Of a DNA stretch of 64,000 nucleotides, positions 10,917 to 20,977 are shown in pieces (position 1 is the stretch's first letter; every line of letters starts with the position of its first letter). The stretch lies in the IMG/VR virus record IMGVR_UViG_3300005836_000015; one strand, 5' to 3'. The position numbers were made by a program, and so were the translations under genes. The DNA comes from a virus. Below the pieces are notes generated by a model. It was not told where the DNA came from. It ran no database searches and saw only the letters and a program-made list of their open reading frames with translations.

Positions 10917-11086
10917 GATCGAGTATCCATCCGAACAGATCATACACGCAATTGTCGGTTCGAATCCGACCTCCCCCTCCGGAGCCTCGGCTCCTCAAGT
11001 TTGGGGGAGTAGCCTAACTGGAAAAGGCAACGGCCAGCAAAGCCGTCTCGCAAGAGACCCTGCTCTGTCCCCTCGGATACTTGATC
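10917..11086 (+). ncRNA. Y-RNA-like element with circularly permuted tRNA body
   Basis: Terminal helix GTATCC/GGATAC, CCGA/TCGG, ACAGA/TCTGT plus TACACGCA; then T arm and 3' acceptor strand CTCCCCC precede 5' strand GGGGGAG, D arm and anticodon arm (loop CAGCAAA). Confidence 0.75.
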
Positions 11087-11092
11087 GAATCT

Positions 11093-11164
11093 GCCGATGT
11101 AGCTCCAAGGTGGAGCGCCTGTTTCGTAATCAGGAGGGCTGGGGTTCGATTCCCCTCGTCGGCT
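11093..11164 (+). tRNA. tRNA-Thr(CGT)
   Basis: CCTG-T-TT-CGT-AA-T-CAGG; acceptor GCCGATG/CGTCGGC. Confidence 0.88.
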
Positions 11165-11301
11165 CCGCTGACTTCTCTGGTGACAGTGCCCGCCCACTAG
11201 GCGAGGTGCATGCTCGACGGTTTCGGTGGTGGATCCCCCTGAACCAAGGCCCCTGACTGATCACCCGGGCCGTGAGATCGACCTTGAAGTTGGCGTGCAA
11301 T

Positions 11302-11377
11302 GCACCCGTAGTCTAACCGGCAAGGATACCGGCCTTTCAAGTCGGATGGTAGGGGTTCGAGTCCCCTCGGGTGCGCC
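11302..11377 (+). tRNA. tRNA-Glu(TTC)
   Basis: CCGGC-CT-TTC-AA-GTCGG. Confidence 0.9.
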
Positions 11378-11422
11378 GCTGGCTCTCGTCGTGTAGTCTC
11401 GCGATGGTCGGCAAGTTCGAAT

Positions 11423-11497
11423 GCCCTGGAAGCTAACTAGGTAGAAGCGGCGGTTTGAAAAACCGCAGGAGTTGGTTCGATACCAACCCGGGGCACC
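11423..11497 (+). tRNA. tRNA-Phe(GAA)
   Basis: GCGGT-TT-GAA-AA-ACCGC. Confidence 0.88.
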
Positions 11498-11579
11498 GCA
11501 GAGAGGGAGCAACGGTAGCTCGGAGGGCTCATAACCCTTTGCCTCTGGCTAACCAGGTTCGATTCCTGGCTCTGCAACC
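11497..11579 (+). tRNA. tRNA-Met(CAT), initiator-like
   Basis: GAGGG-CT-CAT-AA-CCCTT with three G-C pairs and a C1:A72 mismatch. Confidence 0.82.
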
Positions 11580-11654
11580 GGGATGTAGCGCAATTTGGAA
11601 GCGCGGGGGCTCTGGAAGCCTCAGGTTGGGGGTTCGAGTCCCTCCATCCCGACC
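11579..11654 (+). tRNA. tRNA-Pro(TGG)
   Basis: CGGGATG acceptor, TGG anticodon, TTCGA T-loop. Confidence 0.88.
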
Positions 11655-11717
11655 GAGAGAACGGCGAGGTCCGAGACGCATGGTTCTCGGCATCGTGAGA
11701 CCTCTCGACCTAGAAGA

Positions 11718-11791
11718 GGGCCCGTAGCTCAGTGGTTGAGCATCTCCCTGACGCGGAGAAGGTGAAGGTTCGATTCCTTCCGGGCCTACCA
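11718..11791 (+). tRNA. tRNA-Val(GAC)
   Basis: TCTCC-CT-GAC-GC-GGAGA, CCA. Confidence 0.92.
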
Positions 11792-11831
11792 TCCGAAAAA
11801 GTTCGGATCCCTAACTCGATCGCCCTCGGTT

Positions 11832-11839
11832 CCGGTGTA
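11832..11839 (+). promoter_or_regulatory. candidate phage promoter motif CCGGTGTA
   Basis: Upstream of the vWA/ubiquitin-like operon. Confidence 0.55.
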
Positions 11840-11872
11840 CTTCTCTGGAGCCAACCGCGATTGCGGAGGAAA

Positions 11873-18481: not shown

Positions 18482-18558
18482 GGAGACGTTTGCCATCTGG
18501 TGATGGTGGCTGGCTGTGAACCAGTCCTAGGCGGGTTCGATCCCCGTACGTCTCCCCA
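18482..18558 (+). tRNA. tRNA-His(GTG)
   Basis: GCTGG-CT-GTG-AA-CCAGT; 8-bp acceptor with G-1:C73. Confidence 0.88.
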
Positions 18559-18561
18559 AAT

Positions 18562-18634
18562 GTCCCTGTAGCACAGTGGATAGTGCAGTGGTTTCCTAAA
18601 CCAAAGGTCGCAGGTTCGAGTCCTGCCAGGGACG
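18562..18634 (+). tRNA. tRNA-Arg(CCT)
   Basis: TGGT-TT-CCT-AA-ACCA. Confidence 0.9.
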
Positions 18635-18652
18635 CTGGTGTAGGTTTGGACG

Positions 18653-19087
18653 ATGGATGACATCGCCTGGCTCAGGATCCTTCACGAGGAGCTCTGGGTA
18701 AAGAAACCCTCTCCTAGAGCGGCCCCTACTCTCACGAAGGAGGAGTTCGAGAGGGTTCTGAACTGCATCGAGAAGTACAAGCTCGTCGCCGAGATGGTCT
18801 CGACGCACATGTTCGGGGGTTACGGAATGCAGCTCTACGAACACGAGCTCTATCCGGGAACGGGCCCCCAGCTCCTGGTGCTGATCTCCGAGGACAACCT
18901 CCCGGTACCCACGAGGTATGACCGCATCCTCGGCACGGCCCAGGAGCCGCCGAAGCGTAAGCCTGGGTCTGGACGGGACGACGCCTGGGAAATCTTCTCG
19001 AGGTACACGCACTCGGAACAGAACCGAAAGTGGCTCAAGGAGTACAAACTCCACCGCTCAGAAGAGCGTGTCCACTACGACTACTAG
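18653..19087 (+). CDS. hypothetical protein
   Basis: 144-aa ORF preceded by CTGGTGTA motif (18635-18642). Confidence 0.65.
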   Translation: MDDIAWLRILHEELWVKKPSPRAAPTLTKEEFERVLNCIEKYKLVAEMVSTHMFGGYGMQLYEHELYPGTGPQLLVLISEDNLPVPTRYDRILGTAQEPPKRKPGSGRDDAWEIFSRYTHSEQNRKWLKEYKLHRSEERVHYDY

Positions 19088-19339
19088 GCCGACTGCGCTC
19101 CGGGTTCGATCTCGATTTGGAAGTGGGCTTCGAGCTCCCGCCGCATCTTGTCGAAGCGGCTCCAGTCGCCCTTCCACATGGCCTCAGGGAATTCCGCTCG
19201 AAGCTCTCGGAAGAGTCGGATTCCTTCCTCGCACATGAGGAGCTTGTCCCGGACGCACCCACAAGCCAGGGGTCGAACGGCAAGGCGTGTTCCTGACCGG
19301 TGATCGGTCACGCCAACAGGATTTCAACAAGAGCATCAT

Positions 19340-19414
19340 GGTCCCGTCTGCTAACGGTTAGGCGATCTGGTTCTCAGCCAGAGGATGCGGGTTCGATTCC
19401 CGCCGGGATCACCA
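19340..19414 (+). tRNA. tRNA-Glu(CTC)
   Basis: TCTGG-TT-CTC-AG-CCAGA, ACCA. Confidence 0.9.
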
Positions 19415-19420
19415 CAAATT

Positions 19421-19501
19421 GGGGATGTAGAGGAGTCCGGCCGTCCTCGCCTGCCTGTCACGCAGGAGACTTCGCGGGTTCGAATCCCGTCATCCCCGCC
19501 A
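19421..19501 (+). tRNA. tRNA-Asp(GTC)
   Basis: CCTGC-CT-GTC-AC-GCAGG, GCCA. Confidence 0.92.
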
Positions 19502-19577
19502 TGCCCCTGGAGCCGAGATTCGCTTGGCGGGGCTCACAGCAGGACAGAGAAAGCGGGGTTGGCAACCCCACAAGACC

Positions 19578-20744
19578 ATGAAGACGCACGTGAACGTCGG
19601 GACCATTGGCCACGTCGACCACGGCAAGACCACGCTGACGGCTGCCCTCTTGGCGGTGCAAGCTCATGCGGGACTCGCCAAGGTCAAGGCTTACGCCGAC
19701 ATCGCCAAAGGTGGCACGGTCCGCGACGAGACGAAGACGGTGACCATCAACGTCTCCCATGTCGAGTACGAGTCGGCTGTGCGGCACTATGCGCACATCG
19801 ACTGCCCGGGTCACGCCGACTACATCAAGAACATGATCACGGGTGCTGCCCAGATGGACGGGGCCGTGCTCTTGGTGGACGGCAGCCAAGGTCCTCAGCA
19901 CCAGACGAAGGAGCACATCCTGCTCGCTCGTCAGGTCGGGGTCGAGAAGATCGTAGTGTTCATCAACAAGGTGGACATCTCCGATCCCGAACTCCTCGAG
20001 CTGGTGATCCTGGAGACGGTCGAGCGCCTGGAGCTTCACGGCTACAAGGACTCGCCGGTGATCAAGGGGTCGGCGCTCAAGGCCCTGAGGGACCCGGGCA
20101 AGGAAGGGGCGTGCATCCAGGAGCTGATCGCAGCCATGGACACGCACATCCCCGACCCGAAGCGGAACTTCGAGGCGCCGTTCATGATGCCCATCGAGGG
20201 CGTTCACACGATCCCTGGTCGTGGAACCGTCGTCACGGGCCGCATCGAGCGGGGCGTCCTCAAGGCTGGGTCTCCCGTCGAGATCATCGGTCTCGTGGAT
20301 GCCGATGCCAAGCCTCGGCAGGTCGTCTGCACGAGCATCCAGATGTTCCACAAGGATCAACCGGAAGCTCGGGCCGGAGAGAACTGCGGTCTGCTTCTCC
20401 GTGGAGTCGGTCGTGACGAAGTGGTCCGGGGTCAGGTGCTCATCGCCCCCGGGTCGGTCAAGTCGCACCAGAAGGCGAAGGCCGAGCTCTTCGTCATCCC
20501 CGAGAAGGAAGGGGGACGGCACACTCCGATCTACCCGGGGTACAAGCCCCAGTTCTTCTTCGGGACGACCGATGTCACTGGTTCGGTCGTGAACCTTGGG
20601 GATCTGAAGATGCTGATCCCGGGGGACCATGCCGAGGTCTCGCTGGAGCTCCTCAAGCCGGTCGGTATGGAGCCTGGCATGCGCTTCGCTGTTCGTGAGG
20701 GCAGCAAGACTGTCGGCGCCGGGGTCATCCTCAGCGTCGAGTAA
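19578..20744 (+). CDS. tuf: elongation factor Tu
   Basis: [77 protein letters not shown]. Confidence 0.97.
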
Positions 20745-20772
20745 CAACCGGTGGGGCTCGTCCCCACCACAA

Positions 20773-20848
20773 GCCTCGTGAGTCGACTGGAGTCGACGCT
20801 TGATTGTCAATCAAGAGGAGATGGGTTCAATCCCCATACGGGGCGCCA
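20773..20848 (+). tRNA. tRNA-Asp(GTC)
   Basis: CTTGA-TT-GTC-AA-TCAAG, GCCA. Confidence 0.85.
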
Positions 20849-20977
20849 CGGCATCCAACCGTGCAGACCACACACGCAAAGACAGCTCAAATGGTTGAGC
20901 GTCGGCCTCTCAAGCCGAAGGTTGCTGGTTCGACTCCGGCTCCTTGCACCCAAACTGGTCTGTTCTCTCGGATGCCG
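20849..20977 (+). ncRNA. Y-RNA-like element enclosing a tRNA-Glu(CTC)-like cloverleaf
   Basis: CGGCATCC/GGATGCCG terminal helix, CCGTGCAGACCACACACGCA, D arm, TCGGC-CT-CTC-AA-GCCGA, T arm, then CTGGTCTGTTCTCTCGG. Confidence 0.72.

Follow-up and report, generated by a model that had tools for sequence, protein, structure and literature searches.

A stretch of 64,000 nucleotides of DNA from a huge phage, in the following called the window, encodes eight small RNAs in which one conserved helical element, termed the handle, is combined with varied tRNA-like bodies (cargos). These eight RNAs are probably the RNA subunits of a particle of the Ro60/Y RNA type, with the handle serving as the dock for the protein encoded at 11873-13744, and handle RNAs most likely represent a new type of Y RNA, modular in build. 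The first-pass annotation of the window had proposed a modular tag grafted onto different tRNA scaffolds, which is supported by a conserved, covarying structure attached to bodies that are not conserved decoders. It had also suspected that the array is undescribed; within the literature searched, we found no paper describing a handle RNA cassette.

Eight RNAs in the window share one handle

The sequence YACACGCA occurs ten times in the window compared to 1.75 expected copies, and none of 100 shuffled sequences reached ten. Seven of these copies (at 10943, 16344, 16628, 16690, 16909, 17083 and 20871) had been located before, and their coordinates match exactly. The family is not limited to seven members, as had been assumed, nor to this strict motif. 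An eighth member, a permuted tRNA-Cys-like RNA at 16379-16522, carries the variant CACAAGCA, and the family-wide form is [U/C/A]ACA[C/A/U]GC[A/G].

The handle consists, in this order, of stem I with a closing C-G pair, an internal loop, a 7-bp stem II and the unpaired motif YACANGCR. As the first-pass annotation had described, each motif copy has a complementary partner strand; the pairing 7-nt strand precedes the motif, and its partner lies 45-120 nt away. Stem II pairs in the window include CAGATCA/TGCTCTG, CGGTTCG/CGCACCG, CAGTTCG/CGCACTG, GAGTTCG/CGCACTG and CAGACCA/TGGTCTG. The common U-C mismatch in this helix was also found, and is changed to C-G in the copy at 20871. Two further parts had been overlooked: an outer stem I of 7-13 bp and an internal loop that is 7x7 in the window (5′ A(A/U)C..., 3′ ...CUC), both as conserved as the inner stem. 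Across 142 handles, the loop has 6-7 nt per side and no conserved central pairing. Unconstrained MFE folding recovered the handle and cloverleaf parts in every element.

The three topologies stand as originally distinguished. Topology A has a 7-bp acceptor stem, a discriminator and CC, and its handle is a hairpin inserted after the variable region and before the T arm. In topology B, the RNA is circularly permuted and a linker hairpin closes the acceptor. In topology C, a leader and a trailer pair to make the handle. All eight RNAs are encoded on the plus strand within 10.9-21.0 kb of the window, and tRNAs continue to 36.7 kb.

Among the A-type RNAs, A1 (16238-16379) is tRNA-Tyr-like with a 7-bp acceptor, A73 and CC; it has an 8-nt anticodon loop, CUCGUAAA, and its handle hairpin, which follows the variable region and precedes the T arm, occupies 16298-16351. 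A2 (16530-16666) is tRNA-Asp-like, with the anticodon loop CUGUCAA, G73, an encoded CCA and a handle hairpin at 16581-16635. A3 (16799-16945) is tRNA-like with a CAU anticodon (loop CUCAUCA), a long variable arm and a handle hairpin at 16863-16916.

The circularly permuted B1 (10916-11087) has a handle 5′ strand at 10916-10950, made up of stem I (10916-10928), the loop ATCCGAA (10929-10935), stem II (10936-10942) and the motif TACACGCA (10943-10950); the 3′ strand is at 11061-11087. Its cargo runs in the order T arm, 7-bp acceptor with linker hairpin, D arm, anticodon-like arm and variable hairpin, and the anticodon-like loop CAGCAAA has no U33. B2 (17058-17226), also permuted, has its motif at 17083-17090 and its handle 3′ strand at 17202-17226. 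The core of T arm, acceptor and D arm in B2 is the window's best match to the Rfam models for YrlA (25.6 bits) and tmRNA_permuted (28.2 bits), both below the gathering score. B3 (16379-16522) is the additional member; its motif lies at 16404-16411, its stem II (TGGACCT/AGGTCCA) pairs 16397-16403 with 16499-16505, its loops are AACTGAC and GCCCCTC, and its stem I (16379-16389 with 16513-16522) is interrupted.

The handle of C1 (16667-16789) is formed by the leader 16667-16697 and the trailer 16767-16789. Its tRNA-like cargo scores 43.9 bits with the Rfam tRNA model, retains a weak acceptor remnant of 5 bp and has the anticodon loop CUUGAAC. In C2 (20849-20977), leader 20849-20878 and trailer 20956-20977 form the handle, and the cargo at 20876-20950 is called as tRNA-Glu(CUC) and scores 58.7 bits with the Rfam tRNA model. 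A2 (Asp, G73, CCA) and C2, at this score, might still work as tRNAs.

The handle covaries and its cargo does not keep a decoding anticodon

The covariation noted between copies in the window extends to homologues, where both handle stems covary strongly across distant phages and bacteria. In A-type hairpins (n = 18), 89.6% of cells are paired compared to 73.8% in shuffles, a value reached by 0 of 500 shuffles, and pairing falls to 39-56% when the partner is slid. Compensatory changes were observed at 11 of 14 pairs in these hairpins and at 32 of 40 RNAalifold pairs in B-type RNAs; for the C type, with RNAs of 40 loci in phages and bacteria, up to 19 double changes were counted at stem I pairs. 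Among the 142 unique handles, stem II has 107 different sequences and stem I has 114. At 75 related loci, the handle scanner found 166 handles on the gene strand and 16 on the opposite strand. With the strict scanner, no handle was found at 13 of 52 full viral loci and at several bacterial loci; at least one scanner-negative locus (L222) carries a divergent handle.

In the cargos, the T and D loops are conserved. The anticodon loops are not conserved among orthologues and often have no U33, and some cargos have loops of 6 or 8 nt or A34 anticodons. For example, the anticodon position of C2 reads CUC here and AUG, AUG and CAU in the orthologues of related phages. ARAGORN called a tRNA in just 18 of 75 B- and C-type cargos. 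Many C-type cargos have an acceptor of only 3-5 bp; in this type, the acceptor-like stem begins with the base pairs made by the motif's GCR, and in C2 the 5′ end of the called tRNA sits within the motif. The readable standard cargo anticodons (Tyr, Asp, CAU, Ser, Glu, Cys) all duplicate ordinary tRNAs of the same array. Since the anticodon loops are not conserved and the T and D loops are kept, the tRNA parts are mimics and not decoders.

Handles follow a five-gene cassette in phages and bacteria

Co-occurrence with the protein at 11873 had been suggested as a check, and the handles indeed follow the cassette of this vWA protein and not tRNA arrays. The conserved cassette is present in huge phages and in Myxococcota genomes, and its five genes are nearly always found together. 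In the window, all five lie on the plus strand. The first encodes a divergent Ro60-like protein of 623 aa (11873-13744). Directly 3′ of it, in phages as well as in bacteria, is the gene of a 318-aa protein of no recognisable family (13753-14709). A JAB-like protein of ~125-134 aa with an uncertain start codon (14891-15262; weak Prok-JAB match, E 0.014) and an 88-aa protein (15277-15543) follow; the latter, as neighbour of the E1, putatively occupies the slot expected for a ubiquitin-like protein. The final gene encodes a ThiF/E1-type adenylyltransferase of 191 aa (15557-16132), with a terminator-like hairpin (16126-16142) and a T run at its 3′ end. Elsewhere, the window carries the phage's own tmRNA of the normal type (33031-33380), an RtcB RNA ligase on the plus strand (37037-38443) and, next after it, a tRNA-binding-domain protein (38498-38881).

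Handles group at either end of the cassette, with peaks at -1 to 0 kb and +5 to +7 kb relative to the start of the vWA gene, unlike ordinary tRNAs, which are spread evenly over the flanks. Handles are present at 7 of 9 loci without any tRNA. When model R2 was run on four near-complete phage records (94-100%, CheckV; 377-497 kb), all hits of at least 80 bits fell within ~22 kb of the vWA gene, with scores of 82-108 bits for hits outside the training set. In a 10.4-Mb MAG, the only strong matches were the two copies located immediately 5′ of the vWA gene, at 100-104 bits; the next match reached 65 bits. In more distant vWA homologues (31-48% identity), the handle lies directly upstream of the Ro60-like gene itself. 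As the cassette genes are nearly inseparable, synteny cannot tell which of their proteins binds the handle RNA.

The 623-aa protein has a Ro60 fold

The 623-aa protein comprises an N-terminal beta-rich domain (~30-100), a TROVE-like helical-repeat domain (~105-417) and a vWA domain with an invariant MIDAS motif DxSxS (D427, S429, S431). In a Foldseek search of the PDB, its top four hits were Ro60/TROVE entries, and the phiLo structures 9l5y and 9kop are among its best structural matches. Against Swiss-Prot models, the best hits were RO60 of worm, human, frog and Deinococcus, and also Tetrahymena p80. Foldseek with the helical domain by itself gave no significant hit; in an exhaustive fold comparison, matches of this domain were confined to Ro60 structures. 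Pfam TROVE (PF05731) matched none of the 33 family members searched, with E values up to 1 considered, and a PDB sequence search gave no match for the protein. It thus has the ring fold and the C-terminal vWA domain with MIDAS of the Ro60/TROVE family and falls outside the family as defined by Pfam sequence similarity.

A proposed particle and alternative explanations

In the particle that we propose, the whole handle would be the docking site, with its two stems (stem I and the 7-bp stem II), the A(A/C)C.../...CUC internal loop between them and the unpaired YACANGCR, and would be received by the TROVE-like ring and vWA domain of the divergent Ro60. The mimic, with an elbow made of T and D loops and no decoding anticodon, might recruit tRNA-binding factors to the ring or occupy them, by analogy with YrlA. 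The three wirings would present different faces of the mimic: in A, the acceptor end would be free (N73-CC); in B, it would be closed by a hairpin that RNase P could open, giving a two-piece RNA joined via the handle; in C, it would be buried within the handle. The linked E1, 88-aa and JAB-like genes suggest that the output of the particle involves ubiquitin-like conjugation.

Synteny and fold together argue that the handle is bound by the Ro60-like protein and not by another cassette protein. It seems unlikely that the RNAs are instead bound or acted on by the 318-aa protein or by ThiF/E1 with the 88-aa protein, for example by serving adenylation or thiolation of the E1 type on RNA as a scaffold or substrate, and that the Ro60-like protein has a different role. 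The linkage of five nearly inseparable genes would suit any of them, and the 318-aa protein, which has no recognisable family, could be such a partner. Some ThiF-family enzymes act on tRNA, as TcdA does, and in sulfur relay via ubiquitin-like carriers, and a weak NCBIfam match to TcdA was observed; however, what is conserved here is the handle and not a tRNA position at which a modification enzyme would work. Among the cassette proteins, only the Ro60-like one has a fold for which binding of adjacently encoded stem-loop-stem RNAs is documented, and it is the Ro60-like gene that the handle abuts, on its upstream side, in the distant homologues (31-48% identity).

The remaining two explanations place the handle in tRNA biology. 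We consider it very improbable that the handle directs processing, in a role like that of the archaeal bulge-helix-bulge (BHB), with an endonuclease cutting both strands and a ligase (perhaps the phage RtcB) joining the ends, so that A types would be intron-containing tRNAs, B types would be permuted tRNAs matured via a circle, C types would have a leader-trailer stem and all would end as ordinary tRNAs. BHB motifs occur in the intron-containing, split and circularly permuted tRNA genes of Archaea and of Cyanidioschyzon merolae, thus in the same three topologies, but they have two 3-nt bulges flanking a 4-bp helix (3-4-3), whereas the handle has loops of 6-7 nt on each side and lacks a conserved central helix of 4 bp. 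The window does encode RtcB, but at a distance of 16 kb. The C-type GCR begins an acceptor-like stem, with the 5′ end of the C2 tRNA within the motif, but many C-type acceptors have only 3-5 bp. A2 and C2 resemble competent tRNAs. The anticodon loops of the cargos are not maintained among orthologues, often lack U33, and may have 6 or 8 nt or an A34 anticodon, and readable cargo anticodons are already covered by ordinary tRNAs of the array. Removing the handle from A and B types would leave a variable region of ~15-20 nt, and handles track the Ro60-like cassette and not tRNA genes even in the 10.4-Mb bacterial genome. It is likewise very improbable that A-type RNAs and a part of the C-type RNAs act as functional tRNAs with no role in an RNP, whose extra arm or structured leader and trailer regulates maturation, stability or use. 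A1-A3 do have 7-bp acceptors and CC or CCA, their discriminators are plausible (A73 in the Tyr-like RNA, G73 in the Asp-like one), and C2 scores 58.7 bits as a tRNA. However, the same handle sits on permuted and acceptor-truncated bodies that are not chargeable, the anticodon differs among orthologues, A1 has an 8-nt anticodon loop, and handles are confined to the neighbourhood of the cassette.

Comparison with known systems

Handle RNAs resemble BHB-containing tRNA genes in using a single helix motif in three places (internal, joining permuted ends, and as leader plus trailer), and differ in lacking the 3-4-3 geometry, in cargos that are not conserved decoders and in following a Ro60-like cassette. 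Motif removal gives no canonical conserved decoding tRNA, as anticodon loops are variable or aberrant and many acceptors are truncated, which argues against a BHB-type signal. One-piece and two-piece tmRNAs likewise combine a normal or permuted tRNA-like domain with an extra domain before the T arm, but handle RNAs have no reading frame, pseudoknots or alanine identity. The permuted tmRNA model (RF04321) stays below its gathering score of 47, with 28.2 bits for a match limited to the T-arm and acceptor part. The Felix O1-type phage motif UACAGCAA is similar to YACANGCR and not identical; tblastn with the 623-aa protein detected no Felix O1-type Ro60-like protein.

The Ro60 of the Thermus phage phiLo binds stem-bulge-stem RNAs encoded upstream (PMC12135203). 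This system, with Yrl1 and Yrl2 (PDB 9KOP, 9L5Y), is alike in having a phage Ro60 with RNAs encoded just upstream, and differs in its simple CGAA-defined hairpins without a tRNA-like domain, its recognisable Ro60 and the absence of reported ubiquitin-like genes. The handle is unlike known Ro60 sites: of the 142 unique handles, only 7 contain the CGAA motif of canonical Y RNAs (PMC12135203) and 12 contain CGRA. YrlA (RF02553) membership was rejected: the match to B2 at 17094-17166 reaches 25.6 bits, where the gathering score is 69, and is limited to the T arm, acceptor and D arm (model positions 29-81). The earlier idea of a Y-RNA-like service to the vWA/TROVE-like neighbour is carried by the linkage and by a fold matching Ro60 only, and not by the Rfam YrlA model or CGAA.

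A close likeness in arrangement is seen with YrlA and Rsr of bacteria and mycobacteriophage, where rsr adjoins the gene of YrlA, a mimic of a permuted tRNA (PMC4201824; bioRxiv 10.1101/312249). In M. smegmatis YrlA, the acceptor has 7 bp and can be opened by RNase P (Chen et al. 2014, PMC4201824; Wang et al. 2018, bioRxiv 10.1101/312249). Both systems have small RNAs beside a Ro60-type gene, a protein-binding stem joined to a tRNA-mimic domain with conserved T and D loops, and RtcB in the same genome. The B type has the same order of T arm, closed acceptor stem and D arm, from which the A and C types differ. As in Y RNAs generally, the two ends of B and C types pair in a stem that an internal loop divides into stem I and stem II; A-type RNAs carry the handle as a closed hairpin. 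The Ro60-binding stem of YrlA extends the anticodon stem, and a separate anticodon arm is absent, whereas handle RNAs retain an anticodon-like arm of 5 bp, and their handle exits from the variable region in A and B and from the acceptor end in C. The handle sequence (YACANGCR, ...CUC, A(A/C)C) is unrelated to YrlA. Compared to the Ro60 of YrlA systems, the 623-aa protein is missed by Pfam TROVE and has an extra N-terminal beta domain. Finally, handle loci differ from YrlA loci in having three topologies and up to eight copies per locus, and in a Ro60-like gene that is fixed in an operon with the E1, JAB-like and 88-aa genes.

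Architecture of the handle RNAs

The octamer YACACGCA occurs 10 times in the window, compared with 1.75 expected occurrences. The first-pass annotation had reported seven copies in a related motif context, each attached to a helix and a tRNA-like body. All seven were found (at 10943, 16344, 16628, 16690, 16909, 17083 and 20871), and the motif-bearing helix, U-C mismatch included, was borne out by sequence reading and a pairing scan. In each copy the motif forms the 3′ end of a three-part element, the handle. The handle consists of an outer stem I of 7–13 bp with a C-G closing pair, an internal loop of 7 + 7 nt in which the 5′ strand starts with A(A/U)C and the 3′ strand ends with CUC, and a 7-bp stem II containing the mismatch, which is followed by the single-stranded 8-mer. 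Three topologies were seen, as reported: A types carry the handle as a hairpin between the variable region and the T arm, B types are circularly permuted, and in C types the handle is formed from leader and trailer. Unconstrained MFE folding recovered the handle and the cloverleaf arms in all elements.

The family is larger by one member than the seven initially proposed. A relaxed search revealed a permuted tRNA-Cys-like RNA at 16379-16522, which we count as the eighth element because its stem II is perfect, both loop signatures (AAC.../...CUC) are present and its motif is the variant CACAAGCA. When an A-type hairpin model was run on the window, it matched the three A types alone above weak matches, the next four of which were the 5′ strands of C1, B2, B1 and the eighth element.

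Six members and one ordinary tRNA-Leu form a head-to-tail block at 16238-17226, directly after a terminator-like hairpin that closes the upstream operon. This hairpin and its T run (within 16126-16173) overlap the stop codon of the ThiF/E1 gene. GGTGTA, a candidate phage promoter motif, lies at 16166 between the hairpin and the first RNA of the array. Given this order of signals, the array may be a separate transcription unit.

The window comes from a huge phage that has not been cultured. ARAGORN called 46 tRNAs and one tmRNA in it, and it also encodes EF-Tu, RtcB, a tRNA-binding-domain protein and a chaperonin. No close relative was present among deposited phage genomes (INPHARED). The sequence was found at low share in four wetland DNA sequencing runs, wetland metagenomes being the nearest DNA sources; the run search returned no RNA sequencing runs carrying it. 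Some further tRNA-like sequences were noted. An odd run spans 18156-18555, in which 18482-18555, merely 74 nt long and without an ARAGORN call, scores above the Rfam tRNA-Sec gathering score (49.3 versus 47), and 18156-18230, 18298-18378 and 18395-18476 match the same model more weakly. Directly 3′ of C2, 20985-21052 is weakly tRNA-like (Rfam tRNA 25.2 bits, sub-threshold; no ARAGORN call).

Conservation and covariation of the handle

Homologues of the 623-aa protein encoded at 11873-13744 gave 1542 matches in metagenomes at E ≤ 0.001, with 59–91% identity among the best 120 of these. Relative loci were taken from Logan/ENA assemblies, IMG/VR and GTDB genomes, and handles were syntenic and widespread across them. 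Using a scanner that requires the relaxed motif NACANGCR and both stems, we counted, across 75 loci, 166 handles on the strand of the gene and 16 on the other; such counts are underestimates, because the strict scanner missed the divergent handle of the myxobacterium Paraliomyxa miuraensis SMH-27-4. A scan of IMG/VR with the pattern ACACGCA...GGTTCGA was discarded, as nearly all of its 118 stretches were chance matches or ordinary tRNAs.

A consensus was derived from 142 unique handles ending in CUC, genome loci included. The motif reads [U/C/A]ACA[C/A/U]GC[A/G], the first loop base is A in 117 of the 142, stem I is closed by C-G in about 90%, and C-G is kept at the sixth pair of stem II. The remaining sequence is free: stem II occurs as 107 distinct strands and stem I as 114.

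Pairing is maintained in all three types. In 18 A-type hairpins, 89.6% of cells were paired, compared with 73.8% in shuffles and 39–56% with slid partners, and double changes occurred at 11 of 14 pairs. B types showed compensatory changes at 32 of 40 RNAalifold pairs. For C types, 40 phage and bacterial loci yielded 4–19 double changes at every stem I pair. Moreover, the GCR of the C-type motif pairs with a YGC immediately 3′ of the T stem (GCA/UGC, GCG/CGC), and these are the outer pairs of an acceptor-like stem of 3 to 7 bp. A general GCA-UGC pairing of the motif was rejected for the family, as A and B types do not generally show it. A BHB-like pairing within the internal loop was also rejected on manual check.

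The tRNA-like cargo

The cargos, i.e. the tRNA-like parts, are tRNA mimics built around the elbow. Conservation is strong in their T loops (GGUUCGA) and D loops, whereas the anticodon loops of 16 B-type RNAs have no conserved position and often lack U33. In four phages, the orthologous RNA downstream of EF-Tu carries CUC, AUG, AUG and CAU. The acceptor stem is only 3–5 bp in many C-type bodies. Of 75 B/C cargos, ARAGORN accepts only 18, and several of these have A34 or two-base anticodons. For each readable cargo of the window (Tyr, Asp, CAU, Ser, Glu, Cys), the same array also has an ordinary tRNA counterpart. At present, tRNA finders miscall or miss handle RNAs in huge-phage genomes. Some are reported as tRNA-Glu, His or Met with unusual anticodons, and phage tRNA counts are inflated as a result.

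Linkage to a five-gene cassette

The 623-aa gene is almost invariably followed by genes for a 318-aa unknown protein, an approximately 130-aa protein with a weak Prok-JAB match, an 88-aa protein and ThiF/E1 (11873-16132, plus strand, in the window). Co-occurrence with the 623-aa protein had been suggested as a check on the family. Among the 52 viral loci whose flanks are complete, handles concentrate around its gene, with 14 in the kilobase before it and 30 just past the operon, at +5 to +7 kb from the gene start, whereas the 856 ordinary tRNAs of these loci are spread evenly. Handles were still present in seven of nine loci that lack any tRNA.

The C-type covariance model was run over four near-complete huge-phage records (94–100%, CheckV) and a 10.4-Mb MAG. 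All matches of at least 80 bits were located within about 22 kb of the gene, and those outside the training set scored 82–108 bits. The only matches to reach 100–104 bits in the MAG were the two copies upstream of the gene, the next one scoring 65. A full-length 65-bit match at C3:506375-506509, in the MAG with locus L218, is remote from the Ro60-like gene and may represent either a divergent second copy or an ordinary tRNA whose flanks match by chance.

Beyond phages, the cassette was found in Myxococcota MAGs, on a 1.03-Mb contig and in the isolate SMH-27-4. On the 1.03-Mb contig, the 623-aa gene homologue is immediately preceded by two handle RNAs, and a tRNA array is absent from that locus. 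SMH-27-4 (NZ_JAOVZF010000163.1) carries the whole cassette, and a tRNA-Arg(ACG)-like body right after its E1 gene (L222:10131-10262) is enclosed by a divergent handle whose loops are 4 nt long, whose stem II has 5 bp and whose motif reads UACAAGCG. This cultured myxobacterium offers an experimental route. A contig of GCA_005776825.1 (L128/L129) holds the cassette with three handle RNAs and without the JAB-like gene; tryptophan synthase genes and a gene for a 1745-aa CHAT/NACHT-like/WD40 protein with a kinase gene flank it, a cellular-looking neighbourhood of the conflict-system type. Among deposited phages, KX853510.1 (Virus Rctr197k) is the sole record with a homologue (55% identity, 184234-186183), annotated as a misc_feature ‘similar to conserved hypothetical protein’ and not as a CDS. 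The scanner found no handle within 8 kb of it, where about 35 tRNAs are annotated.

A divergent Ro60-like protein

Pfam detects only a vWA domain (residues 422–514) in the 623-aa protein, and Pfam TROVE gave no match among 33 family members. The AlphaFold model (pLDDT 79) has Ro60/TROVE entries as its four best PDB matches. Swiss-Prot model matches comprise RO60 of worm, human, frog, mouse and Deinococcus as well as Tetrahymena p80, all aligned over residues of about 105–585. The helical domain alone retrieves generic helical repeats in Foldseek (Ro60 at rank 39, E 0.42), and vWA domains dominate VIA re-ranking of the whole model. From the structural model we conclude that the protein is a divergent Ro60-type protein, one that escapes sequence annotation, with an extra N-terminal beta-rich domain. 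Solved Ro60 structures do not align to this domain (residues about 30–100; window 11873-12172), which Pfam does not match either and which could serve as an additional RNA-binding module. For the 318-aa protein, searches of Pfam, NCBIfam, PHROGs, PADLOC, ESM Atlas and a PDB-sequence profile search gave nothing beyond chance-level matches (E 0.16 or worse).

Possible function of the handle RNAs

The first-pass annotation proposed a Y-RNA-like modular tag on tRNA scaffolds, and the comparative evidence supports this. The best-supported reading is that the handle RNAs and the Ro60-like protein form a Ro60/Y-RNA-type particle. We infer the Ro60-like protein as the binder, and likewise the action of the particle and the role of the E1, 88-aa and JAB-like genes. 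The handle would dock on the Ro60-like protein, and the tRNA mimic would be the effector-facing module, its acceptor end predicted to be free in A, closed in B and buried in C types. RNase P could open the B types into two-piece RNAs, as an analogy with M. smegmatis YrlA (PMC4201824) suggests.

The main rival is that the handle is a splicing or permutation signal which, together with RtcB, leads to ordinary tRNAs. This would account elegantly for the three topologies, but it is contradicted by truncated acceptors, by anticodon loops that are aberrant and not conserved, by the lack of BHB geometry and by a distribution of handles that is bound to the cassette. Another possibility is that a different cassette protein binds or modifies the handle RNA. 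This is compatible with the synteny; since the five genes nearly always occur together, a presence/absence matrix does not separate them as candidate binders.

Within the Ro60/Y-RNA-type reading, the cassette as a whole might be a tRNA-baited tagging machine that captures tRNA-directed proteins on ring-held mimics for modification by the Ubl-type genes, though we regard this as improbable. The Ro60-like ring would display mimics with free, closed or buried acceptors and fast-changing anticodon loops. Proteins attacking tRNAs or acting on them would be its prey, for example anticodon nucleases and other tRNA-directed toxins, and E1, the 88-aa protein and the JAB peptidase would modify the captured protein or the particle. 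If true, Ro60/Y-RNA surveillance would be tied to ubiquitin-like conjugation in huge phages and Myxococcota.

Ro60, a major lupus autoantigen, is conserved together with its Y RNAs from bacteria to humans. To our knowledge, what the second module of a Y RNA recruits is still largely unknown. The handle RNAs offer a natural series in which one putative docking handle is combined with tRNA mimics that are complete, permuted or blocked at the end, and a locus can hold up to eight of them.

Comparison with known systems

Only tRNA and tmRNA families reach the Rfam gathering score in the region, and no ribozyme family was matched. YrlA, tmRNA_permuted and Tymo tRNA-like gave sub-threshold partial matches and were rejected as identities. 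The Rfam comparison with Y RNA/YrlA models proposed at the outset gave no assignment: the handle RNAs score at best 25.6 bits against YrlA, where 69 are needed. Their junction differs and, unlike YrlA, they retain the anticodon arm. On these grounds they are not YrlA members. The CGAA signature of canonical Y RNAs is found in just 7 of 142 handles. A similar stem with UACAGCAA has been described for Felix O1-type phages. Our literature search found no published Ro60-like protein fixed to E1/JAB genes and no published Y-like RNAs in several tRNA topologies; here, the Ro60-like gene is genetically welded to ubiquitin-like activation genes, a link we have not found reported for Ro60. A jumbo-phage survey mentions TROVE proteins with a tRNA-like partner in some phages and says no more (PMC7824862). 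Known systems that work similarly are Rsr-YrlA and phiLo Ro60-Yrl (PMC4201824, PMC12135203), and YrlA, like the cargos described here, is a tRNA mimic built around the elbow (bioRxiv 10.1101/312249).
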